This document shows, piece after piece, positions 6,182-44,827 of a stretch of 64,000 bases of DNA; the stretch's first letter is position 1, and each line of letters begins with the position of its first letter. The translations under genes and the position numbers were made by a program. Source of the stretch: Burkholderiales bacterium (GTDB taxonomy: Bacteria > Pseudomonadota > Gammaproteobacteria > Burkholderiales > SG8-39). Under the pieces are notes generated by a model. It was not told where the DNA came from and did no database searches. It was given only the letters and a program-made list of their open reading frames with translations. The DNA is taken from positions 155,870-219,869 of the forward strand of contig CBDIHI010000007.1 in NCBI GenBank assembly GCA_965279075.1, read 5' to 3'.

Positions 6182-6664
6182 TCAGGCGATCCTCTCGCAG
6201 GGCTGGCCGGCGACCGCGGCGAGGAGGTCCACCGCCGCGCCGCGCCCCGGGATCCGGGCGTGGGGATCGATCTCCAGCAGGGGCTTCAGCACGAACGCCC
6301 GCTCGTGCATGCGGGGGTGCGGCAGCGTGAGCCGCGGTGTGTCGCGCACCTCGTCGCCGTACGCGAGCAGGTCGAGGTCGAGCGTACGCGGCGCGTTCGC
6401 GAAACTGCGTGCGCGGCCGTGGGCCGTCTCGACCTTCTGCAGTTCGTCGAGCAGTTCGTCGGCCGTCAGTTCACTCTCCACGCAAGCCACGGCGTTCACG
6501 AATTCGGGCTGGTCCGCGTATCCGACCGGTGCGGAGCGCCACAGGGAAGACCGGGCCACGAGCGCGCTGCGCGGCAGGCGCGCCAGTTCGTCGAACGCAC
6601 GCCGTACCTGCCCGCGCGGGTCGTCCAGGTTGGCGCCGAGGCCGATGAAGGCGCTGACTTTCAA
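6182..6664 (-). CDS. folK: 2-amino-4-hydroxy-6-hydroxymethyldihydropteridine diphosphokinase
   Basis: HPPK blocks are present (AFIGLGANL, PRTLDLDLL, LPHPRMHERAFVL). I infer a TTG start (LKVSAF) 5 nt after the pcnB stop. The longer track ORF would overlap pcnB. Confidence 0.85.
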   Translation of the reverse strand: MKVSAFIGLGANLDDPRGQVRRAFDELARLPRSALVARSSLWRSAPVGYADQPEFVNAVACVESELTADELLDELQKVETAHGRARSFANAPRTLDLDLLAYGDEVRDTPRLTLPHPRMHERAFVLKPLLEIDPHARIPGRGAAVDLLAAVAGQPCERIA

Positions 6665-6671
6665 GCCGGCC

Positions 6672-8018
6672 TCAGCCCGTCGGGTCCGCCGCGCTGTCGC
6701 TTGAAGGACCCTGCGAGCCGTCGGCGGGCTTTTTGCGCCGGCGCCGGCGCCGCGGCTTGGGACCCGCGTCCGCGGTGAGCATGGCCTGGCGGGTCTCGTC
6801 GTCGGCGAACTGGAAAGACCGCCACCAGATCTCCAGTTCCTCCGGCACCTCGCCGCTCGCGGCGCGCAGCGCGAGGAAATCGTAGGCCATGCGAAACCGC
6901 GGGGATTCAATCAGCCTGAAGGGGCGCTGCCCGGAGCGCTGCTCGAACCGCGGCTGCATGGTCCACACTTCGCGCATTGTTGCGGTGAGCTTGCGGGTGA
7001 TGGCCAGCTTCTCGCACTGGGTCTCGAGCACCTCGTCCATCGCCGCTTCGAGGGCGAGGGCGGGCCGCTCGCCCTTCTTCTCGCGCGCCTTGGAAGCCGC
7101 CAGCACTTCGTGCCAGAGCAGCGCGGCGAACAGGAATGCGGGCGACACGGAACGCTCTGTCTTGATCCGCTCGTCGGTCTGGGCGAGGGCCAGCGTGACG
7201 AACCGCTCGCCGAGGGGCTGGTCGAGGATCACGTCGAGCAGCGGCAGCAGGCCCTGCGAGAGCCCTTCGTCGCGCAGCCGCCGCACGCATGCGCTGGCGT
7301 GGCCCGACAGTAGGAGCTTCAGCATTTCGTCGAACAGGCGGGCGGGCGGCACGTTGCCGATCAGCGGAGCCATCTTCTTGATCGGCGCGCGGGAACCCGA
7401 CTCGATGGACAGCCCTAGCTTCGCGGCGAGCCGCACCGCGCGCAGCATCCGGACCGGGTCCTCGCGGTAGCGGACGGCGGGGTCGCCGATCACGCGCATC
7501 GTGCGCTTCTTGAGGTCGGCGAGGCCCTCGTGGTAGTCGATCACTTCCTCGGTGGCGGGGTCGTAGTACAGCGCATTCACCGAGAAGTCGCGGCGCAGCG
7601 CGTCCTCTTCCTGCGTGCCGAACACGTTGTCGCGCAGCACGCGGCCGTGTTCGTCCTTCTGCGCATCGGCCGACTCGGCGGCCCGGAAAGTCGAGACCTC
7701 GACCGTCTCCTGGCCGATGATGACGTGCACGATCCGGAAGCGCCGCCCGATCAGCAGCGCGCGGCGGAACAGCGGCTTCACCTCTTCAGGGCGGGCGTCC
7801 GTCGCCACGTCGTAGTCCTTGGGGGTGGCGCCCAGCAGGAGGTCGCGCACGGCACCCCCGACAACGTAGGCGGAGAACCCCGCCTCCTGCAGGCCGTTGC
7901 ACACCTTGAGCGCGGCCGGGCTGATCCGGTTGCGCTCGATGCCGTGCTTGGCGCGCGGGACGCGCTGCGGGCCGGCGGCCTTGAGCCCCAGCACCTTGCG
8001 AATGAACTTCTTGATCAT
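6672..8018 (-). CDS. pcnB: Poly(A) polymerase I
   Basis: Carries GGAVRDLLLG..PKDYDVAT and RFRIVHV blocks, with a basic C-terminal tail. Confidence 0.95.
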   Translation of the reverse strand: MIKKFIRKVLGLKAAGPQRVPRAKHGIERNRISPAALKVCNGLQEAGFSAYVVGGAVRDLLLGATPKDYDVATDARPEEVKPLFRRALLIGRRFRIVHVIIGQETVEVSTFRAAESADAQKDEHGRVLRDNVFGTQEEDALRRDFSVNALYYDPATEEVIDYHEGLADLKKRTMRVIGDPAVRYREDPVRMLRAVRLAAKLGLSIESGSRAPIKKMAPLIGNVPPARLFDEMLKLLLSGHASACVRRLRDEGLSQGLLPLLDVILDQPLGERFVTLALAQTDERIKTERSVSPAFLFAALLWHEVLAASKAREKKGERPALALEAAMDEVLETQCEKLAITRKLTATMREVWTMQPRFEQRSGQRPFRLIESPRFRMAYDFLALRAASGEVPEELEIWWRSFQFADDETRQAMLTADAGPKPRRRRRRKKPADGSQGPSSDSAADPTG

Positions 8019-34569: not shown

Positions 34570-36819
34570 ATGAAGTTCCGCTTTCCCATCGTCATCATCG
34601 ACGAAGACTTCCGCTCGGAGAACGCATCGGGCCTCGGCATCCGTGCACTCGCCAAGGCGATCGAGGACGAGGGCATGGAGATCCTCGGCGTGACCGGCTA
34701 CGGCGACCTGTCGCAGTTCGCGCAGCAGCAGAGCCGCGCCTCGGCCTTCATCCTGTCGATAGACGACGAGGAGTTCACGCCCGGCCCGGAGCTCGACCCG
34801 GCGGTGCTGAGCCTGCGCAAGTTCATCGGCGAGATCCGCCGCAAGAACGCGGACATCCCGATCTACCTGTACGGCGAGACGCGCACCTCCCAGCACATCC
34901 CGAACGACATCCTGCGCGAACTGCACGGCTTCATCCACATGTTCGAGGACACGCCGGAGTTCGTCGCGCGCCACATCATCCGCGAGGCGAAGTCGTACCT
35001 CGACGGCCTCGCACCGCCGTTCTTCCGCGCGCTGACCCACTACGCGCAGGACGGCTCGTACTCCTGGCACTGCCCCGGGCACTCCGGCGGCGTCGCCTTC
35101 CTGAAGAGCCCGGTCGGCCAGATGTTCCACCAGTTCTTCGGCGAGAACATGCTGAGGGCCGACGTCTGCAACGCGGTGGACGAACTCGGGCAGCTGCTGG
35201 ACCATGACGGGCCGGTCGGCGCCTCGGAAAAGAACGCCGCCCGCATCTTCGGCGCCGACCATTGCTACTTCGTCACCAACGGCACCTCGACCTCCAACAA
35301 GATGGTCTGGCACGCCAACGTCGCGCCAGACGACATCGTGGTGGTGGACCGCAACTGCCACGTGTCGATCCTGCACGCGATCACGATGACCGGTGCGATC
35401 CCCGTGTTCCTCACGCCCAAGAGGAACCACCTCGGCATCATCGGCCCGATCCCGCTGGAGGAGTTCAGCCCCGAGAACATCGCGCGGAAGATCGAGGCCA
35501 ACCCGTTCGCGCGCGCGGCCAAGCGCAAGAAACCGCGCATCCTCACGATCACGCAGAGCACCTACGACGGCGTGCTCTACAACGTCGAGATGCTGAAGGA
35601 CACGCTCAATTCCTCGATCGAGACGCTGCACTTCGACGAGGCCTGGCTGCCGCACGCGACCTTCCACGACTTCTACAAGAACATGCACGCAATCGGCCGC
35701 GACCGGCCGCGCGCGAAGGACGCGATGATCTTCGCCACGCACTCGACCCACAAGCTGCTGGCCGGCATCTCGCAGGCCTCCCAGATCCTCGTGCAGGAGT
35801 CGCAGACGAGGAAGCTCGACCGCCACTCGTTCAACGAGGCGTACCTGATGCACACTTCGACCTCCCCGCAGTACGCGATCATCGCGTCCTGCGACGTGGC
35901 GGCGGCGATGATGGAGCCGCCGGGCGGCACGGCGCTGGTGGAGGAGTCGATCCTCGAGGCGCTCGATTTCCGCCGCGCGATGAAGAAGGTCGACAACGAG
36001 TGGGGCAAGGACTGGTGGTTCAAGGTCTGGGGCCCGGAGAAGGTCGCCACGGACGGCATCGGTTCGCGCGAGGAGTGGGTGCTGAAGGCCAACGACAAGT
36101 GGCACGGCTTCGGCAACCTTGCGACGGGCTTCAACATGCTCGACCCGATCAAGGCAACCGTGATCACGCCGGGCCTCGACGTCTCGGGCAGGTTCGCCAA
36201 GAGCGGCATCCCCGCGGCGATCGTGACGCGCTACCTCGCCGAGCACGGCGTCATCGTCGAGAAGACCGGGCTCTACTCGTTCTTCATCATGTTCACGATC
36301 GGCATCACCAAGGGCCGCTGGAACACGCTGGTGACGGCGCTGCAGCAGTTCAAGGACGACTACGACAAGAACCAGCCGCTCTGGCGCGTGCTGCCGGAGT
36401 TCTGCCAGGCGCAGCCGCGCTACGAGCGCCTCGGGATCCGCGACCTGTGCGAGCAGATCCACGGCATGTACAAGGCCAATGACGTGGCCCGCGTCACCAC
36501 CGAGATGTACCTGTCGGACATGCAGCCCGCAATGAAGCCCTCCGACGCGTTCGCGGCGATGGCGCACCGCGAGATCGACCGGGTGCCGATCGACAAGCTC
36601 GAAGGCCGTGTCACCAGCGTGCTGCTGACGCCCTACCCGCCGGGGATCCCGCTACTGGTCCCGGGAGAGCGCTTCAACGCGACCATCGTCAGCTACCTGC
36701 AGTTCGCGCGCGAGTTCAACCGCAAGTTCCCCGGGTTCGAGACCGACATCCACGGCCTGGTGGAGGAGAAGGTGGACGGCGTGTCCGAGTACTTCATGGA
36801 CTGCGTCCGGCAGGCGTGA
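34570..36819 (+). CDS. Orn/Lys/Arg decarboxylase (large, wing-domain, PLP-dependent)
   Basis: About 750 aa. The PLP-lysine motif is FATHSTHKLLAG. The N-terminal wing domain begins FPIVIIDEDF. The ATG is preceded by GGAGAA. Confidence 0.92.
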   Translation: MKFRFPIVIIDEDFRSENASGLGIRALAKAIEDEGMEILGVTGYGDLSQFAQQQSRASAFILSIDDEEFTPGPELDPAVLSLRKFIGEIRRKNADIPIYLYGETRTSQHIPNDILRELHGFIHMFEDTPEFVARHIIREAKSYLDGLAPPFFRALTHYAQDGSYSWHCPGHSGGVAFLKSPVGQMFHQFFGENMLRADVCNAVDELGQLLDHDGPVGASEKNAARIFGADHCYFVTNGTSTSNKMVWHANVAPDDIVVVDRNCHVSILHAITMTGAIPVFLTPKRNHLGIIGPIPLEEFSPENIARKIEANPFARAAKRKKPRILTITQSTYDGVLYNVEMLKDTLNSSIETLHFDEAWLPHATFHDFYKNMHAIGRDRPRAKDAMIFATHSTHKLLAGISQASQILVQESQTRKLDRHSFNEAYLMHTSTSPQYAIIASCDVAAAMMEPPGGTALVEESILEALDFRRAMKKVDNEWGKDWWFKVWGPEKVATDGIGSREEWVLKANDKWHGFGNLATGFNMLDPIKATVITPGLDVSGRFAKSGIPAAIVTRYLAEHGVIVEKTGLYSFFIMFTIGITKGRWNTLVTALQQFKDDYDKNQPLWRVLPEFCQAQPRYERLGIRDLCEQIHGMYKANDVARVTTEMYLSDMQPAMKPSDAFAAMAHREIDRVPIDKLEGRVTSVLLTPYPPGIPLLVPGERFNATIVSYLQFAREFNRKFPGFETDIHGLVEEKVDGVSEYFMDCVRQA

Positions 36820-36821
36820 AA

Positions 36822-36873
36822 GTCTGACTTTGGTCCTTTGAACGCAAGGGCTGGAGCCGCTTGCGTGTCAGAC
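36822..36873. terminator. Nested imperfect hairpin (GTCTGAC..ACGCAAG...CTTGCGT-GTCAGAC) between the convergent decarboxylase and folA genes
   Basis: Inverted repeats were read directly. No clear U-tract on either strand. Confidence 0.35.
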
Positions 36874-36892
36874 AGCATGCCTGTTTAGGAAA

Positions 36893-37429
36893 CTACAGGC
36901 GGATCCTCTCATACATCACGAAGTCGTACGGCAGCCCGTCCGCGGACGTGTGGGACTGCCGCTGCGACTCCCTGAAGGCCGCGCGATCCCAGTCCGGGAA
37001 GCGCGTGTCGCCGTCGAAGTCCTTGCCGATCTCGGTCATCACGATCCCGTCCGCCAGCGGCAGCGCGGCCGTGTAGATCTCGCCGCCGCCGATCACGAAG
37101 GCGAGGGGCTCGCCGATGCAAAGCGCCATCGCGCCTTCCACCGATGAGGCGATGCTGACGTCCGGGATCTCCAGCCCGGGCGTGCGGCTCACCACGATGT
37201 TCTCGCGGCCGGGCAGGGGTTTCCCGATCGACTCGTAGGTCTTGCGGCCCATGATCACCGGGTGGCCGAGCGTGAGCGCCTTGAAGTGCTTCAGGTCCTC
37301 GGGCAGGTGCCAGGGCATCCGGTTGCCGGCGCCGATGACGCCGTTGGGGGCCACGGCGGCGACGAGGAAGACGCGCGTCGCGCCGCCTCCCGGTGTGACT
37401 TCTGTCCTGTCTTGTGCTTCGCCCATCAT
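36893..37429 (-). CDS. folA: Dihydrofolate reductase
   Basis: Carries VIGAGNRMPWHLPEDLKHFKALTLGHPVIMGRKTYESIG and VIGGGEIY. It has a roughly 18-aa N-terminal extension. Confidence 0.92.
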   Translation of the reverse strand: MMGEAQDRTEVTPGGGATRVFLVAAVAPNGVIGAGNRMPWHLPEDLKHFKALTLGHPVIMGRKTYESIGKPLPGRENIVVSRTPGLEIPDVSIASSVEGAMALCIGEPLAFVIGGGEIYTAALPLADGIVMTEIGKDFDGDTRFPDWDRAAFRESQRQSHTSADGLPYDFVMYERIRL

Positions 37430-37444
37430 GCAATTATAGGCGGC

Positions 37445-38926
37445 ATGGCACCGTCGATCCCCGCGCATTACACGGCCCAGCCCCCCGACAAGCGCTTCCC
37501 GCGATCCTTCCTGAAGCTGCTGGTGGCGGGCTTCCTGCTGGTCGCCCTGCCGCTCGCGGGGGCGCTGATGTATTCGGCATGGAACACCGAGCGCCTCGCC
37601 GAGCAGGCGCAGTTCGCGGTGTTCAACGCCGCGCAGGCGGCGCGCGCGAGCCGGTCCCTGGTCAACCGCATCAACTCGATCGAGCGCATCGCGCAGCAGT
37701 ACGCGGTGCAGGCCGATGCCGAACTGGTCGCCGATTACGCGCGGGTCAGGCGCAGCTTCGGGCAGGTGTCGGCGGAACTCGCGCGGCTCCCGCTGGATGG
37801 CGAGCAGCTCGCGGCGCTCAACCGCACCATCGAGAAGGAGCGCCGGCTCTACGACCTGCTGGCCGCGGGGTCCGGCGCGAAGCCCGACGCGGCGCAGGCG
37901 AGCCGGTTGGCCGGTGACCTGGCCGAGAGCGCCTACGAGGTGCTTGCGATCAGCTACGTGATCGCCGACCGGGAGGTGGAGCGGCTGAGGATGTCGGCCG
38001 AGGCCGTGCGCGGGCGGATGCTGCTGCTGCTCTTCGCGACGATCGCGATCGCGCTGGCCGCGGCCCTGGTCCTCACGCGCCTTATCGCCCGGCCGATCCG
38101 CGAGCTCGATGCGTCGATCCGGCAGCTGGGCAGCGCCGACTTCACGCGCCCGATCAGGGTGAGCGGCCCGGACGACCTGCAGGACCTCGGCGAGCGGCTC
38201 GACTGGCTGAGGCGCCGGCTGACGGAACTCGAGGCACAGAGGAACCGGTTCCTGCGCCACGTCTCGCACGAGCTCAAGACGCCGCTCACGGCGTTGCGCG
38301 AGGGCGCCGAGCTGCTGCACGACGGGGTGGGCGGCGCGCTCGCCCCGCAGCAGAAGCTGGTGGTGGAGATCCTGCGCGAGAACTGCATGAAGCTGCAGCG
38401 CATGATCGAGGACCTGCTGGATTACCAGCACGCGCTGCACGTGGCGGCGACTCTGGACAGGAAACCCGTCGCCCTCGAGAAGCTGCTGCGCGAAGTCGCC
38501 GATGCCCACCGGCTCGAGGCGCACGCCAAGCGCCAGACCGTGTCCCTCGACGTGCCCCCGGCCAGCATCGAGGCCGACGGCGAGAAGCTGCGCACTGTCT
38601 TCGACAACCTGGTGGGCAACGCGCTCAAGTTCACGCCCGAGGGCGGGCTGATCTCGATCGTGCTGCAGGAGGAGGCGGACGCGGTTCGCGTCGAGGTCGT
38701 CGACACGGGGCCGGGTGTCCCGCCGGAAGAACGGCGCTCGATCTTCGACACGTTCTTCCGCGGCCGGGCCAAGAGCGGGGGCCGGGTCGAGGGCAGCGGC
38801 CTCGGCCTCGCGATCGCGCGGGAGTTCGTGCAGGCGCACGGCGGGACGATCGGCGTCGCTTGCGACGGCAAGGGTTCGCGCTTCAGCGTGGTTTTGCCGC
38901 GGCGCGCGGGCGGGGCGGCGGCATGA
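37445..38926 (+). CDS. glrK: GlrK/QseE-like sensor histidine kinase
   Basis: The N-terminus (RFPRSFLKLLVAGFLLVALPL) resembles E. coli GlrK. It has a HAMP domain, the H-box FLRHVSHELKTPLTAL and the G-box GSGLGLAIA. The start lies 15 nt from the divergent folA start. Confidence 0.85.
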   Translation: MAPSIPAHYTAQPPDKRFPRSFLKLLVAGFLLVALPLAGALMYSAWNTERLAEQAQFAVFNAAQAARASRSLVNRINSIERIAQQYAVQADAELVADYARVRRSFGQVSAELARLPLDGEQLAALNRTIEKERRLYDLLAAGSGAKPDAAQASRLAGDLAESAYEVLAISYVIADREVERLRMSAEAVRGRMLLLLFATIAIALAAALVLTRLIARPIRELDASIRQLGSADFTRPIRVSGPDDLQDLGERLDWLRRRLTELEAQRNRFLRHVSHELKTPLTALREGAELLHDGVGGALAPQQKLVVEILRENCMKLQRMIEDLLDYQHALHVAATLDRKPVALEKLLREVADAHRLEAHAKRQTVSLDVPPASIEADGEKLRTVFDNLVGNALKFTPEGGLISIVLQEEADAVRVEVVDTGPGVPPEERRSIFDTFFRGRAKSGGRVEGSGLGLAIAREFVQAHGGTIGVACDGKGSRFSVVLPRRAGGAAA

Positions 38927-39420
38927 GCGCCCGGGCCCTTGTGCTTTTGCTGGCTGCCGCAGCGGTGTGCGGCTGCGGCAGCCTGCCGTCCGCGCCGCCG
39001 GCCGCCGGCCTGGTGGGCTACTTCGCGGCCGTGTCCCGGCAAGGGCCGTCGGGCCAGAAGCAGGCGCTCGCCCAGGCAGCGCAGTCCTTCGGCCGCGACC
39101 CAACGCCCATCGCGCGCCTCAGGCTGGGCGGGCTGCACGCGCAGCCCGCGCCGGCGCTGCGCGACGACGCGCGCGCGCTGTCCCTGCTCGAGCCGCTGCT
39201 GGCGCCGGCGCGGGACCCCGCCGGCACGGACCCTGCGATCGCCGACCTTGCCGCGCTGCTGCACGCGCAGGTGGCCGAGCGCCAGCGCGCGGCGCGCGAC
39301 GAGGCGAAGAAACTGGACGCCCTGCGGGAGCAGAACGAGGCCATGAAGGAGCGCTTCGGCGCCCTGCGGGCGCTCGATCGCTCGATCCTGCAGCGCGAAG
39401 ACCGCCAACCCCACCGGTGA
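38923..39420 (+). CDS. qseG: QseG/YfhG-like lipoprotein
   Basis: ATGA-coupled to the kinase. It has a signal/lipobox-like N-terminus (LLLAAAAVCGCGS). The C-terminal coiled coil AERQRAARDEAKKLDALREQ...LDRSILQ resembles E. coli QseG (AEERQRYSKL...LDTLRQQ...IERQLS). Confidence 0.6.
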   Translation: MSARALVLLLAAAAVCGCGSLPSAPPAAGLVGYFAAVSRQGPSGQKQALAQAAQSFGRDPTPIARLRLGGLHAQPAPALRDDARALSLLEPLLAPARDPAGTDPAIADLAALLHAQVAERQRAARDEAKKLDALREQNEAMKERFGALRALDRSILQREDRQPHR

Positions 39421-39427
39421 CGACGCC

Positions 39428-40771
39428 ATGAGCAAGGATGTCCCGCACGTTCTCCTCGTCGACGACGACGCCGACCTGCTGCAACTGATCGCGATGCGGC
39501 TCGTCTCGACCGGCTATGCCGTGACCGCGGTCGGGTCCGGCGAGGCGGCGCTGGCGAGCTTCGCGGTGAACCGCCCGGACGCCATCGTGACCGACCTGCG
39601 CATGCGGGGCATGGACGGCATGGCGCTGTTCGACGCGATCCATCGCCAGGCTCCGACGCTCCCGGTGGTGATCCTCACCGCGCACGGGACGATCCCCGAG
39701 GCCGTGGCGGCCACGCGCCGCGGCGTCTTCAGCTTCCTGACCAAGCCCTTCGACAGCAAGGTGCTGACCGAAACCGTGGCCGATGCGCTGCGCCTCGCCC
39801 CGGGCGAGGCGGGGGAGCCCGGCGGATGGCGCTCCGAGATCGTCACGCGTTCCGCCGCCATGGAGCACCTGCTGTCCCAGGCGCAGCTGGTGGCGCAGTC
39901 CGATGCGAGCGTCTGCATCTTCGGGCCGAGCGGGACCGGCAAGGAACTGATCGCGCGCGCACTGCACCGCGCGAGCCGCCGGGCCGGCAAGCCCTTCGTC
40001 GCCGTGAACTGCGGCGCGATCCCCGAGGGGCTGCTCGAGACCGAGCTCTTCGGCCACAAGAAAGGCGCGTTCACCGGCGCCACGCAGGACCGCCGCGGCC
40101 TCTTCCAGGCGGCCGAGGGCGGCACGCTGTTCCTCGACGAGGTCGGCGACATGCCCCCGGCGCTGCAGGTGAAGCTGCTGCGCGCGCTCGAGGACCGCAC
40201 CGTGCGCGCGGTGGGCGCCAACGAGTCCGTCCCGGTCGACGTGCGCATCGTCTCGGCCACGCACAGGAAGCTCGAGGACCGCATCGCGTCCGGCGAATTC
40301 CGCGAGGACCTCTATTACCGGCTCAACGTCGTGAAGCTCGTGGTGCCGCCGCTGGCCGAACGCCGCGAGGACATCCCGCTGCTCGCGGGGCACTTCCTCA
40401 AGCGCCTCGCCGAGCGCTACCAGAAGCGCGCGCAGGGGTTTTCGCCGGAGGCGCTGGAGTTGCTGATCGCCGCGCCCTGGCCGGGCAACGTGCGCCAGCT
40501 GCTGAACGTCGTGGAGCAGTCGGTCGCGCTCGCCACCACCGAGGTCGTGCCGGCGTCGCTGGTGCGGCAGGCGATCGACCATGCCGAGAGTTCGCTCACG
40601 CCGCTGGACGAGGCCCGCCGCGCGTTCGAGCGCGACTACCTCGTGCAGCTGCTGAAGCTCACCGCGGGCAACGTGTCGCAGGCGGCAAAGCTCGCGGGGC
40701 GCAACCGTACGGAGTTCTACCGGCTGCTGGAGCGCCACTCGCTCGAGCCTGCGCAGTTCAAGAACAGCTAG
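39428..40771 (+). CDS. glrR: Sigma54-dependent response regulator GlrR/QseF
   Basis: Colinear with E. coli GlrR: LLVDDD, DLRM..MDGM, GVFSFLTKP, GPSGTGKE, GAFTGA, and the HTH AGRNRTEFYRLL. Confidence 0.92.
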   Translation: MSKDVPHVLLVDDDADLLQLIAMRLVSTGYAVTAVGSGEAALASFAVNRPDAIVTDLRMRGMDGMALFDAIHRQAPTLPVVILTAHGTIPEAVAATRRGVFSFLTKPFDSKVLTETVADALRLAPGEAGEPGGWRSEIVTRSAAMEHLLSQAQLVAQSDASVCIFGPSGTGKELIARALHRASRRAGKPFVAVNCGAIPEGLLETELFGHKKGAFTGATQDRRGLFQAAEGGTLFLDEVGDMPPALQVKLLRALEDRTVRAVGANESVPVDVRIVSATHRKLEDRIASGEFREDLYYRLNVVKLVVPPLAERREDIPLLAGHFLKRLAERYQKRAQGFSPEALELLIAAPWPGNVRQLLNVVEQSVALATTEVVPASLVRQAIDHAESSLTPLDEARRAFERDYLVQLLKLTAGNVSQAAKLAGRNRTEFYRLLERHSLEPAQFKNS

Positions 40772-40826
40772 ACGAGAAGAGGGGCTGCCGCCCCTCCTCA
40801 CGCCTCCCCGCGAACGTCTTTCCTTT

Positions 40827-40844
40827 TGTCGTCAAGCGGCGACA
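40827..40844 (+). promoter_or_regulatory. Candidate GlrR upstream activator box TGTC-N10-GACA (exact)
   Basis: TGTCgtcaagcggcGACA, read directly. Its centre is about 175 nt upstream of the predicted sigma54 start site. Confidence 0.55.
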
Positions 40845-40891
40845 GAAAAAAATCCGTCGTTTCAAGGCGTTCCCCGAAGGCCCCGGAATCC

Positions 40892-40909
40892 TGTCGTGCG
40901 GCCACGACG
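40892..40909 (+). promoter_or_regulatory. Candidate GlrR upstream activator box TGTC-N10-GACG (one mismatch)
   Basis: TGTCgtgcggccacGACG, with its centre 65 nt from box 1. Confidence 0.45.
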
Positions 40910-40986
40910 GTTCACAGTCTTTTACAACCCTGGAACTTATTCACGGATCGCACGCAAGTCGTTGCGGCGATTGCGTATTCCGGCAT

Positions 40987-41002
40987 TGGCACGGGGCTTG
41001 CA
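40987..41002 (+). promoter_or_regulatory. Sigma54 (-24/-12) promoter TGGCAC-N5-TTGCA
   Basis: TGGCACggggcTTGCA matches the consensus exactly. It ends 39 nt before the ATG at 41042, so the predicted TSS is near 41013. Confidence 0.8.
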
Positions 41003-41041
41003 AACAACGGGTGTCGGAACGCAACGGAAAAGGAGAACAAC

Positions 41042-41584
41042 ATGGAACCGAACAAATCCCATCCCCTGGTGTTGGCCGCCTCGGTGGCGGTGATCGCGTG
41101 CTCGGGCCTTGCCGCGGCAGTGCTGACCGGCGTGCTGCCGAGCGCCGTATCGAAGAACGCCGATTCGCAGGCGGTGATCGCACAGGCGGCACGCGTGCCT
41201 GCGCAGGACCGCTACGCGCCGCCCCGCCCCGTCCCGCGCCGTGCGGCCTGCCCGACCTGCGGCGTGGTCGAGGCCATCCAGCCGGTCGAGGTGCGCGGCG
41301 AAGCGAGCGGCCTCGGTGCCGTCGCGGGCGGCGTGACCGGCGCGGTCGTCGGCAACCAGTTCGGCAACGGTGGCGGCAGGACCGCGATGACGATCCTCGG
41401 TGCCGCGGGCGGCGCCTACGCCGGCAACGCGATCGAGAAGAACGTGAAGAAGGCCACCTCGTGGCGCGTCACGGTGCGCCTCGACGACGGCTCGTTCCGC
41501 ACGGTCTCGCTCGCCTCGGCGCCACAGTTCGCCGCGGGTGCGCACGTGCGGGTCGTAAACGGCTCGAACCTCGAACTGATCTGA
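41042..41584 (+). CDS. Glycine-zipper 2TM domain protein (SlyB / 17-kDa surface antigen-like), membrane-anchored
   Basis: AAGGAG RBS. It has an N-terminal anchor helix, CPTCGVVEAI, and the glycine zipper GLGAVAGGVTGAVVGNQFGNGGGRTAMTILGAAGGAYAGN. Confidence 0.8.
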   Translation: MEPNKSHPLVLAASVAVIACSGLAAAVLTGVLPSAVSKNADSQAVIAQAARVPAQDRYAPPRPVPRRAACPTCGVVEAIQPVEVRGEASGLGAVAGGVTGAVVGNQFGNGGGRTAMTILGAAGGAYAGNAIEKNVKKATSWRVTVRLDDGSFRTVSLASAPQFAAGAHVRVVNGSNLELI

Positions 41585-41595
41585 AGGGTGCGCAA

Positions 41596-42117
41596 ATGAG
41601 CATGAACAAGCAGGTGGAAGTCAGTTTCGGCGGCCCGTCGTTCCAGTCGCGCCGGCTGCCGACGCAACGCGAACGCTTCCTGATGGAGATGGAGCAGGCG
41701 CTGCCCTGGGCCAAGCTGCGCGGGCTCGTCGCGCCTGTCTACGCCGACCCGCGGCGCGTGCGCGGCAACCCGCTCGAGCTGGACCGCATGCTGAGGGTGT
41801 ACTTCCTGCAGCGCTGGTTCCACCTGTCGGATGCCGCCGTGCGCGAAGAATTGCTCGACTCGAGGGCCATGCGCGCCTTCGCCTGCGTTGGCCTCGCGCC
41901 GGACCGTGCGCCCGAGGAGATCTCGATCTGCGGGTTCCGCCAGCTGCTGGAGGAGTTCGGGCTCGGCAACGCGATCGTCGATGCGGCCGAGCGCCACCTC
42001 TGGGAGCAGGGCATGGCCGTCTCGCCCGGCGCGATCGTCGACGCCACGCTGTCCCGGGCCCGTTCCGCGCAGGCCCGCGGGCAGGCCGGGGATGTCCCGA
42101 ACCCGGTCAGCCACTGA
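41596..42117 (+). pseudogene. IS5-family (InsH-like) transposase, N-terminal 173 aa only, with the DDE domain missing
   Basis: Aligns by eye to the IS5 InsH N-terminus (RERFLMEMEQALPW; LELDRMLRVYFLQRWFHLSDAAVREELLDSRAMRAF; FRQLLEE; GAIVDATL). It then ends, whereas a full transposase is about 330 aa. Confidence 0.8.
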
Positions 42118-42127
42118 GGAGTCCTTC

Positions 42128-42457
42128 ATGCAGGCAATCAAGCACCGGCACCAGTCGGGCAACCTCCTGCAGGCGACCTGGGGTTTCGCCCTGGTCCTGA
42201 TGGTCATCGTCGGCATCTGCGGCACGATCTACAAACTGCTCGCCCCTTCGGGCTGGATCGCTTCGCTGCTGGGCCGGGGATTCTCCGGCGGGGTGGCCGC
42301 CATCGGCCTGGTGATCGTGTTCGGCGTGGTCGGCTGGGTCGCGCGCACCTGGACCACCACCCGCCAGCAATCGGGCATGGCCGACCTCACGGTTTACGTC
42401 TTCGCCGCGGCCGGCGCGCTGTATTCCTTCCAGTACTGGACGAAAGGGGTCTTCTAG
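42128..42457 (+). CDS. Hypothetical 109-aa membrane protein (3 predicted TM segments)
   Basis: GAGGAG RBS 7 nt upstream, hydrophobic segments, and a terminator downstream. Confidence 0.5.
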   Translation: MQAIKHRHQSGNLLQATWGFALVLMVIVGICGTIYKLLAPSGWIASLLGRGFSGGVAAIGLVIVFGVVGWVARTWTTTRQQSGMADLTVYVFAAAGALYSFQYWTKGVF

Positions 42458-42515
42458 CGCGTACCCGCCACGAATCCGGGAAAGCCCGCAGAGGCGCCCG
42501 CACAGGTTATCCCCA

Positions 42516-42553
42516 GGGCTCGCCGACCCCCCCGAAGGCGGGCCCTTTTTTTT
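42516..42553 (+). terminator. Intrinsic terminator (GGGCTCGCC...GGCGGGCCC followed by T8)
   Basis: 9-bp stem with 1 mismatch and an 8-T tail, read directly. It is oriented for the + strand genes. Confidence 0.6.
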
Positions 42554-42554
42554 G

Positions 42555-43378
<824 letters not shown>

Positions 43379-43382
<4 letters not shown>

Positions 43383-44668
43383 ATCGCGATATAGGCAAAG
43401 AGCTCGCGCGCGGTCTGGAAGCGGTCTGCGGGCTTCTTCGCGAGCATGCGGTTGACGATCGGCTGGTAGCCGGAGAGCTTGCCGGGCAGTTGCGGCACCG
43501 GGCCGTGCACGTGCTGGTAGATGAGTCCCGCGGCATTTTCGGCGTCGAAGACCCGCTGGCCCAGCAGCATCTCGACGAAGATCACCCCGAGGCTGTACAG
43601 GTCCGAGCGCTGGTCCACCGGCAGGCCCATGCACTGTTCCGGGCTCATGTAGCGCGGCGTGGCGAGCAGTTCGCCGTGCATCGTCAGGCTCGACTCGACG
43701 CTGAGGTCCTTGGCGAGGCCGAAGTCCACGATCGCCGGGCGCCCGTTCTCGCGGAACAGGATGTTCTGCGGCTTCAGGTCGCGGTGGATGATGCCGTGCG
43801 CGTGGATCGCGTCGAGCGCCTTCGCGATCTGCGAGGTGAGCCGCAGCGCGCCCAGCGCCGTCATCCTCTCCAGCAGCCGCACCTTCAGGTCGCCCCCCGG
43901 GAAGTATTCCATCGCGATGAACGGGTGCTCGCCCGAGAAGCCCTGGTCGAAGATCTTCGCCACGTGCTCGTTCTCGAACGAGGAGATCAGCTTGTGCTCC
44001 TGGATGAAGCGTTTCCTGAACACTTCGTCGCGGCGCAGGGACGGGTCGAGCACCTTCAGCACCAGCTGCAGCCCGTCGCTCTCCCGCTCGGCGAGGTAGA
44101 CCTTCGCCATGCCGCCTTCGCCGATCTTCCTCAGGACGCGGTAGCCCGGCACGGCGCGGGTCTCGGCCTTGACCGGCATGCCGATCTTGCGCACGTCGAA
44201 CTGCGAGGTGCGCAGGAACGCCGGGTCGAGGCTGGTGATGTCGATCTGCCGGGCCTCGTGTTCGCGCAGCGCGTCCTCCAGCGAACGCACCAGCTGCTCA
44301 CCGGTCAGGCCGTCCTTGCGCAGGAAATCCGCCGCGCCGGACTTCATTGCCTTCACGGCGATGTACTCCCCGCCGTGCTCCGTGAACAGCACGACCGGGG
44401 GCGCCTTGGGGTCCCTGCGGATCTGCGCGACCCAGGCGAGGCCGTCGTCGCCCGCCGGCTCGGTGTCGAGCAGCACCGCGGCGTAGCGGCCCGCGGCGAG
44501 CAGGGGTACCGGGTTGCCCTGTGCACGGGGATCCCATTCCACGACCTCCGCCTCCGGCCAGCGCCAGCGCAGCATGCCCGACAGGGCCGCGCGGAACGGG
44601 CCGGATTCGTCGATGATCAGGAAACGCATTGAGAGGCAGGCGGGCGCGTTGGGGGGCGGTTCGGACAT
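43379..44668 (-). CDS. Receiver-domain / Hanks-type Ser/Thr protein kinase fusion
   Basis: REC-like N-terminus ([38 protein letters not shown]), then a kinase domain ([37 protein letters not shown]). The start is ambiguous: TTG 44692, ATG 44668 or ATG 44629. Confidence 0.85.
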
Positions 44669-44827
44669 CGGTTTGTCATCGATTGTAGCCAAGGTTGCGC
44701 ATTCGCACCCGGGATAGCATCATCCACGGCTTTGGGCCGGCGCCGGAGTGGTTTCAGGACGCGCGGACAAACGGCTTCCCGGCAGCCCGACAAGCGGCGC
44801 GGGGCCGGCAACCGAGGGGAATTCCAC

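Follow-up and report, generated by a model that had tools for sequence, protein, structure and literature searches.

What does a GlrK/GlrR two-component system control outside the enterobacteria? In Enterobacteriaceae, the TGTCN10GACA sites to which GlrR (also QseF) binds precede the sigma-54 promoter of the small RNA (sRNA) gene glmY by more than 100 bp, and integration host factor (IHF) is required (PMC3045617). QseF also activates rpoE, QseG is needed for QseE to phosphorylate QseF, and the QseEF system has been described as conserved in Enterobacteriaceae (PMC6075780). GlrK/GlrR orthologues of beta- and deltaproteobacteria appear in KEGG-based surveys (PMC8895600), and a group of QseF-like enhancer-binding proteins (EBPs) was noted in 2011 (PMC3162934). 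We address the question with a 64,000-nucleotide stretch of contig CBDIHI010000007.1 (the window) from an uncultured soil Burkholderiales, a betaproteobacterium, which carries genes for a GlrK-like kinase, a small lipoprotein and a GlrR-like regulator. We consider it probable that this GlrK/GlrR-type system, with its accessory periplasmic lipoprotein, is wired in cis to the sigma-54 promoter of a small envelope operon. As judged from the sequence, this is a real and previously undescribed rewiring of a known system, with a predicted function. The sensor-regulator pair and the cis-grammar are known and conserved and the output is new, so that the arrangement is not categorically new.

The regulator is, on sequence comparison, a clear GlrR orthologue, since it is 57% identical to E. 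coli GlrR across 445 aa (E 1e-179), since the motif AGRNRTEFY in the C-terminal helix-turn-helix (HTH) region is identical in the two proteins, and since GlrR was the best of 112 NCBIfam models. This model was matched end to end (2-445 of 445) with 618 bits, followed by NtrC (412 bits), ZraR (399 bits) and AtoC (396 bits). Pfam assigns the domains REC, Sigma54_activat, AAA_lid and HTH_8. Walker A (GPSGTGKE), GAFTGA and the phospho-acceptor D56 are visible in the translation, and the latter two are conserved with respect to E. coli GlrR. Members of the regulator's 90% cluster are named GlrR by the JGI pipeline. The kinase is colinear with E. coli GlrK and 35% identical to it (E 6e-69) over residues 18-485, a range that covers the periplasmic domain as well. 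A GlrK-specific model is lacking from NCBIfam, and E. coli GlrK too goes without a match there. Both assignments had been proposed in an earlier note made from the letters of the window, and both stand, the kinase by its Pfam domains, its colinearity and its synteny with glrR. The gene coordinates given there, the ATGA overlap and the 7-nt gap were likewise found in place. The three genes are on the plus strand and are flanked by folA (minus strand, start 37426), 18 nt from glrK, and, past the output operon, by thyA (minus strand).

The region behind glrR contains two GlrR-type boxes upstream of a predicted sigma-54 promoter (Table 1). These were found exactly where the earlier note had reported two TGTC-N10-GAC(A/G) repeats and TGGCAC-N5-TTGCA, and the centres of the boxes are exactly 65 nt apart. 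The promoter is the sole match in the window, even when 1 mismatch is allowed. Taken singly, neither pattern is over-represented in the 64 kb: the box pattern matches 3 times (4.3 expected) and the promoter pattern once (1.4 expected with at most 1 mismatch). All box and promoter matches fall within this single intergenic region. As none of 2000 windows from a Markov simulation combined an exact promoter with two boxes at 60-250 nt upstream, it is the clustering and not the single-motif counts that is improbable by chance.

The arrangement is conserved at orthologous loci. The collection of species-representative genomes contains no match above 78% identity, and the best matches are metagenome-assembled genomes (MAGs) of Burkholderiales; the window, too, is part of a MAG contig, 290 kb long. 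All of the loci L002-L006 (63-78% GlrR identity) have two boxes and a sigma-54 promoter directly after glrR. In L002, L003 and L004 the promoter is directly followed by the gene for a small protein with three hydrophobic segments (3-TM protein, for transmembrane) and then by thyA, without the glycine-zipper gene that comes first in the window. In L005, one promoter precedes the gene for a 717-aa lipoprotein-like protein, the counterpart of which in L089 has fn3 and cytochrome-c domains, and a second one precedes a glycine-zipper/3-TM gene pair. Conversely, all 7 homologues of the glycine-zipper protein that were looked up (52-58% identity) are encoded downstream of a kinase/small-ORF/EBP module, 5 of them directly after it and the other two (P0112 in L089 and its twin in L090) with a 712-aa gene in between. 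These loci have the same box and promoter motifs, and in several of them folA and thyA again form the frame. When 12 orthologous intergenic regions were aligned, the invariant columns were GTCG...GACA of box 1, GTCG...AC of box 2 and TGGCA...TTGC of the promoter, and past box 1 also some positions of an A-tract/TCA element. In all 8 loci measured, the two boxes are exactly 65 nt apart.

A further TGTC-N10-GACA box occurs in the folA-glrK intergenic region of three loci (L082, 2439-2456; L088, 2634-2651; L091, 2630-2647), with none in the window. By its sequence and position it may serve autoregulation of the kinase operon.

Metagenomes were scanned with a pattern that holds DNA positions only and no protein information (GTCG-N9-GACA-N48-GTCG-N10-AC-N62..82-TGGCA-N6-TTGC, 21 gap lengths allowed). 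At least 120 stretches matched, and 80 loci with 81 sites (L094-L173) were analysed. A GlrR-like gene (at least 55% identity) ends no more than 400 nt upstream at 44 of these 81 sites, 75 having enough upstream sequence. A glycine-zipper and/or 3-TM gene is found within 1.5 kb downstream at 46 of the 81. The site lengths are bimodal, with 60 sites of 159-164 nt and 21 sites of 170-174 nt, the latter including the class of the window. The two classes differ by about one helical turn, which argues for face-of-helix phasing of the boxes relative to the promoter. In 78 of the metagenomic sites, a conserved tAA.cc.tTga.tt block stands about 19-32 nt ahead of TGGCA; it resembles YAAnnnnTTGA, which is the IHF consensus in reverse complement.

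Other genes occur behind the same architecture. MlaC is encoded there in L099, L101, L106 and L118 (Pfam 5.7e-50), MdoG/OpgG in L098 (6e-167), and secreted EF-hand proteins in L095, L104, L114, L128, L129, L136, L146, L169, L170 and L173, one of the EF-hand proteins having a confirmed BON domain. Further first genes code for large secreted proteins or for 85-aa ORFs with a weak, below-threshold resemblance to the HMA domain. Some of the MlaC, MdoG and EF-hand sites are far from any glrR. These occurrences suggest that the box/promoter architecture marks a wider envelope regulon.

In the window, the three ORFs from 41042 to 42457 are predicted to form one operon, because neither a sigma-70-like promoter nor an intrinsic terminator was found within the scanned stretch 40700-42600. 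The earlier note had named a single envelope protein, in place of an sRNA, as the adjacent output; its envelope nature is supported, and the output extends to an operon of three genes.

The first protein matches the glycine-zipper family PF05433 with 34.1 bits (cut-off 24.2 bits, E 2.6e-8). The only clear NCBIfam match is PRK11280, at 52 bits and thus under the 99-bit cut-off. BLASTP aligned the protein with E. coli YcfJ (35% identity over 84 aa). SlyB of PDB entry 7OJF was the only significant PDB match both by sequence (phmmer, residues 72-175, E 5.9e-9) and by structure, when the AlphaFold2 (AF2) model was searched by Foldseek (113 columns, E 3.5e-9). In the family alignment one sees a conserved 22-residue N-terminal hydrophobic helix, a variable linker, an invariant CxxCG, an invariant Gly/Ala zipper pattern and a DDGSxRT beta domain. 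A SlyB-type lipobox cysteine was considered and rejected: Cys20, which stands in a VIAC sequence in the window, is absent in nearly all of 39 homologues. As Cys20 is not conserved and the N-terminal helix is, the protein is better read as signal-anchored than as a lipoprotein. The membrane-anchored SlyB/17-kDa-type product of the earlier note is thus retained in its family, fold and transmembrane (TM) anchor and refined to a YcfJ/SlyB-like protein that is not a lipoprotein; by sequence and model it is predicted to be a TM signal-anchored, YcfJ-like protein of SlyB fold.

The invariant CxxCG (window 41249-41260, residues 70-73) is predicted to be periplasmic and stands directly before the first beta strand. 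SlyB and YcfJ are without it.

The second ORF covers positions 1-134 of 285 of the NCBIfam IS5 model. It is not a recent insertion sequence scar, as L084 has an intact ORF at this place of the operon (47% identical, 6549-7055), and so has L145 (61% identical, oriented 871-1338). It looks like a domesticated transposase DNA-binding domain that has been kept intact in three lineages. The third protein, with 109 aa, is the 3-TM protein. It matches no Pfam or NCBIfam family, and only 63 cluster representatives were found in 1.84 billion proteins.

In L082, the slot between the glycine-zipper and the 3-TM gene holds, at 6530-6757, a 75-aa ORF for a second glycine-zipper protein (Gly-zipper_Omp, 3.4e-11) and not a DUF772 protein.

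Table 1. Genes and predicted regulatory elements of the kinase-lipoprotein-regulator module and its output operon (window coordinates).
Feature	Position	Strand	Remarks
GlrK/QseE-like sensor histidine kinase, 493 aa	37445-38926	+	TM, periplasmic domain, TM, HAMP, HisKA, HATPase_c (Pfam: HAMP/HisKA/HATPase_c)
Small periplasmic lipoprotein (predicted), 165 aa, QseG position	38923-39420	+	Lipobox VCGC, Cys18; ATGA overlap with kinase stop
GlrR/QseF-orthologous sigma-54 enhancer-binding response regulator, 447 aa	39428-40771	+	D56, GAFTGA, HTH_8; 7-nt gap after lipoprotein ORF
Intergenic region, glrR to glycine-zipper gene	40772-41041		270 nt
Distal GlrR-type box TGTCG-N8-CGACA, TGTCgtcaagcggcGACA	40827-40844		Exact match; centre about -177; putative upstream activating sequence 1
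Proximal GlrR-type box TGTCG-N8-CGACG, TGTCgtgcggccacGACG	40892-40909		Centre about -112; putative upstream activating sequence 2
Weak IHF-like element CAAgtcgTTGcgg (reverse complement of WATCAANNNNTTR)	40955-40967		Between box 2 and promoter; 6 of 9 specified positions; tentative
Predicted sigma-54 promoter TGGCAC-N5-TTGCA (-24/-12), TGGCACggggcTTGCA	40987-41002	+	Exact; predicted start about 41013
Ribosome binding site AAGGAG	41030-41035		ATG of glycine-zipper gene at 41042
Glycine-zipper 2TM protein, 180 aa	41042-41584	+	N-terminal TM anchor, low-complexity linker, CxxCG, Gly-zipper hairpin, C-terminal beta domain
IS5-family transposase N-terminal half (DUF772), 173 aa, no DDE domain	41596-42117	+	PF05598 at 2e-11
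109-aa protein, three hydrophobic segments (hydropathy)	42128-42457	+	Most widely retained member of the output operon

The product of the gene between kinase and regulator had been likened to QseG in the earlier note by its C-terminal coiled coil only, and this is the part for which an alignment was obtained. The protein has a signal peptide and a lipobox cysteine (Cys18) that is invariant in the locus-derived alignments A1 and A2 and conserved to at least 90% in the 41-sequence alignment A5. Its AF2 model is of high confidence (predicted local distance difference test, pLDDT, 91.5) and consists of a TPR-like helical bundle and one long C-terminal helix; Foldseek returned only non-significant TPR-like matches from the PDB. 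The likeness to QseG lies in the position, the lipobox and the C-terminal helix, where manual alignment shows LEALKxIERxI in the window protein and LENLTDIERQL in QseG (pattern LExLxxIERxL). BLASTP against E. coli QseG was non-significant (E 1.6). A profile of 13 beta- and gammaproteobacterial sequences matched the enterobacterial QseG profile in hhalign with 93% probability (E 3e-7) over the C-terminal 54 columns only, and with a 41-sequence profile restricted to Burkholderiales the signal peptide alone aligned. An assignment to QseG by Pfam or NCBIfam was rejected. As the family models fail, and as the profile match is C-terminal and profile-dependent, QseG identity is not established and the protein is treated as a positional counterpart of QseG, of unproven homology.

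The enterobacterial GlrR regulon includes the sRNA genes glmY and glmZ. The earlier note had expected no GlmY-type sRNA at this locus, and this agrees with the Rfam searches, which at gathering thresholds found neither GlmY/GlmZ nor any other family in the whole window, nothing relevant at E of at most 10 in 36800-42600, and only a tRNA, without GlmY/GlmZ, in 11 orthologous loci.

One locus of a betaproteobacterial MAG differs in its output. In L006 (GlrR 63% identical), the stretch 6370-6684 has two boxes 65 nt apart and TGGCAC-N5-TTGCA, followed by no ORF. A 133-nt ORF-less stretch after the promoter has a predicted fold of -56 kcal/mol (z -4.8) and ends in a strong canonical intrinsic terminator. 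It matches no Rfam family, is not GlmY, and has no homologue among the 80 metagenomic loci. On this evidence L006 is a candidate for a GlrR/sigma-54-dependent sRNA, and GlrR-type systems may thus have sRNA outputs in bacteria other than the enterics.

The proposed mechanism would run as follows. The kinase would sense a periplasmic or envelope cue, with the lipoprotein probably modulating it as QseG does for QseE, and would phosphorylate D56 of the GlrR orthologue. The phosphorylated regulator would bind both TGTCG-N8-CGAC(A/G) inverted repeats, 65 bp apart. The DNA would be bent, possibly at the IHF-like site, and the AAA+ ring would contact closed E-sigma54 at TGGCAC-N5-TTGCA, so that promoter opening would lead to a transcription start near 41013. 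We infer activation of E-sigma54 at 40987-41002 because the HTH region is conserved and because the sites are both conserved and phased. The mRNA would yield an inner-membrane-anchored periplasmic protein of SlyB/YcfJ fold, a domesticated IS5 N-terminal-domain protein and the 109-aa 3-TM protein. Predictions in this chain are the binding to DNA, the need for sigma-54 and GlrR, the nature of the signal and the protective role; the orthology, the motifs, their conservation and fixed geometry, the linkage of the architecture to regulator and targets, and the glycine-zipper fold are supported directly.

SlyB and YfgH are stress-induced glycine-zipper lipoproteins and membrane stabilisers, which are thought to form ring-like oligomers that enclose lipids and outer-membrane proteins; Mla mutations act as suppressors of slyB phenotypes (bioRxiv 10.64898/2025.12.22.696046). 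By analogy, the glycine-zipper product of the window would oligomerise in or at the membrane and stabilise the membrane or its proteins under envelope stress. Its SlyB fold, and the MlaC, BON and OpgG genes that follow this architecture elsewhere, make a part in an envelope-stabilising response the simplest reading.

Several observations weigh against this explanation. The regulator's 618 bits are below the curated equivalog cut-off of 763 bits for GlrR (NF011695). The middle protein matches neither of the QseG models (Pfam PF13942, YfhG lipoprotein; NCBIfam NF007997) even at E of at most 1, and its profile-profile match to QseG is confined to the C-terminus and not robust across profiles. The AF2 model of the glycine-zipper protein, computed from a 40-sequence alignment, is of moderate confidence (pLDDT 68), with the beta domain being more confident. 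The glycine-zipper gene is missing in the closest relatives (the 97%-identical L145 and L002-L004, with 76-78%), which keep the 3-TM gene; it is for this reason a variable member of the operon and not its core. A TM anchor replaces the lipid anchor of SlyB, so that compartment and mode of action may differ; together with the CxxCG it implies that the location and chemistry of the product may not be those of SlyB. The loci of gammaproteobacterial GlrR orthologues (L007-L011) have no adjacent boxes or promoter, and adjacency of target and regulator is therefore not universal. The sigma-54 gene rpoN was not seen in the window, although no search aimed at rpoN was made. Lastly, the host belongs to an uncultured MAG lineage, with no cultured-species name among the matches or cluster members looked up.

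The same wiring might serve a different signal. PhoPQ responds to low Mg2+/Ca2+, and the regulon could be a functional counterpart of the PhoPQ to SlyB pathway that answers divalent-cation, metal or periplasmic redox status and not envelope damage in general, its outputs binding or buffering cations or thiol-reactive agents. The recurrence of EF-hand Ca-binding periplasmic proteins as first genes behind the architecture, the invariant CxxCG of the glycine-zipper family and the weakly HMA-like 85-aa ORFs would fit such a role, and one preprint presents SlyB as a central component of the PhoPQ pathway (bioRxiv 10.64898/2026.06.08.730324). However, the targets MlaC, MdoG and BON-domain proteins suggest a role in the homeostasis of lipids and glucans and not in ion handling, the HMA match remains below threshold, and the periplasmic domain of the kinase has no metal-binding motif as far as examined. 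We regard this reading as unlikely; it refines the proposed wiring to an envelope operon and is compatible with it.

It is also conceivable, and in our view very improbable, that another EBP serves the boxes and the promoter, the adjacent GlrR-like regulator acting elsewhere and its adjacency being inherited synteny. Genomes of this kind usually encode several EBPs, and 7 of the 46 architecture sites with glycine-zipper or small-TM genes downstream have no adjacent glrR. Against this stand the GlrR-like gene directly upstream at 44 of the 75 sites with enough upstream sequence, the AGRNRTEFY identity to E. coli GlrR in the HTH region, and the box sequence itself, which is the experimentally defined GlrR site (PMC3045617).

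Least credible of all is that the palindromes are structural elements of RNA or DNA (a glrR terminator or repeats of the repetitive extragenic palindrome type), TGGCAC-N5-TTGCA being there by chance and transcription of the operon coming from an unrecognised sigma-70 promoter or running through from glrR: the boxes are indeed inverted repeats, a hairpin follows the glrR stop and the single-motif counts are at chance level, but conservation is confined to the half-sites, the 8-10 nt inside each box varying freely and without compensatory pattern, the spacing is fixed at 65 nt with helical phasing to the promoter, the promoter is invariant across loci with unalignable flanks, no sigma-70-like site was found in 40700-42600, and no simulated window had the joint cluster.

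The hairpin just mentioned (AGGGGC-TGCC-GCCCCT, GC-rich and without T-tract, window 40780-40795) lies 9 nt past the glrR stop and may be a transcript-end or stabiliser element that separates glrR from the sigma-54 unit.

With the enterobacterial GlrK-QseG-GlrR system, the window thus shares an orthologous regulator (57%), a colinear kinase and a lipoprotein gene between the two, TGTCG-N8-CGACA sites that precede a sigma-54 promoter by over 100 bp and of which two are spaced by about 63-65 bp, a likely IHF-type element, a target that adjoins the system and the theme of cell-envelope homeostasis. The E. coli glmY boxes read TGTCG-N8-(C/A)GACA, the distance from ABS2 to ABS3 is 63 nt, and that from the start of ABS3 to the promoter is 107 nt, for which the window has 95 nt. 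The systems differ in that the enterobacterial target is an sRNA gene upstream of glrK, whereas here it is a protein-coding operon downstream of glrR. Furthermore, glmY has three boxes and an overlapping sigma-70 promoter, whereas the window has two boxes and no overlapping sigma-70 promoter was found, its lipoprotein is not recognisably QseG beyond the C-terminal motif, and GlmY/GlmZ were not detected.

With PhoPQ-induced SlyB and YfgH of E. coli and Salmonella, the glycine-zipper protein has in common the 2TM hairpin and beta-domain fold and control by an envelope-sensing two-component system, which is predicted here. SlyB and YfgH have an N-terminal lipid anchor and PhoP/sigma-70 control, while the window protein has a TM helix, an extra linker, CxxCG and predicted sigma-54/EBP control. 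YcfJ of E. coli, a PF05433 family protein, is close in length (179 versus 180 aa), also has an N-terminal TM segment, and is 35% identical in the glycine-zipper core, PRK11280 being presumed to be the YcfJ family. It differs in the sub-threshold PRK11280 score and in the C-terminal domain, which BLASTP does not align. Upstream of E. coli ycfJ, no sigma-54 motif or GlrR box is apparent by eye, no pattern scan having been made. The ZraP-ZraSR and PspF-pspABCDE systems also combine an EBP adjoining its target, a sigma-54 promoter and small periplasmic or membrane proteins that protect the envelope, but their EBP subfamilies, binding sites and effector folds differ, and this is a functional analogy only. 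Ralstonia PehSR was rejected as a known equivalent, as PehR has about 550 residues and GlrR is only an alignment comparator in the paper on it. We found no precedent in the literature for GlrR/QseF targets outside the enterics or for sigma-54 control of SlyB/YcfJ-type genes.

Next to thyA, the window encodes a 437-aa Ser/Thr protein kinase fused to a receiver domain (43379-44692, minus strand). This gene (Response_reg and Pkinase) is syntenic in L082, L084, L088 and L091, where a FimW_N-domain gene follows it.

QseEF/GlrKR has been studied almost exclusively in enterics, where its signal and physiological role are poorly defined. An orthologous system outside the enterics that keeps the box sequence, a spacing of about 65 bp, the helical phasing and the sigma-54 promoter, with membrane-protective proteins as its predicted output, sheds independent light on the purpose of the system, which would be envelope integrity. 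We suggest, tentatively and as a doubtful possibility, that GlrK/GlrR was ancestrally a sigma-54-dependent envelope-integrity system with SlyB/YcfJ-type, 3-TM, MlaC, BON/EF-hand and OpgG targets, and that the enterobacterial link to GlmY/GlmZ is a later rewiring. The unrelated transcript of about 133 nt predicted behind the same architecture in L006 would then indicate that sRNA outputs were recruited more than once. Because both regulators have AGRNRTEFY in the HTH region, E. coli GlrR may recognise the promoter of the window. The locus predicts a new regulatory link, that of sigma-54 with the SlyB/YcfJ glycine-zipper family, and brings into view two unstudied protein families, the 3-TM protein and the IS5 N-terminal-domain-only protein retained inside the operon.

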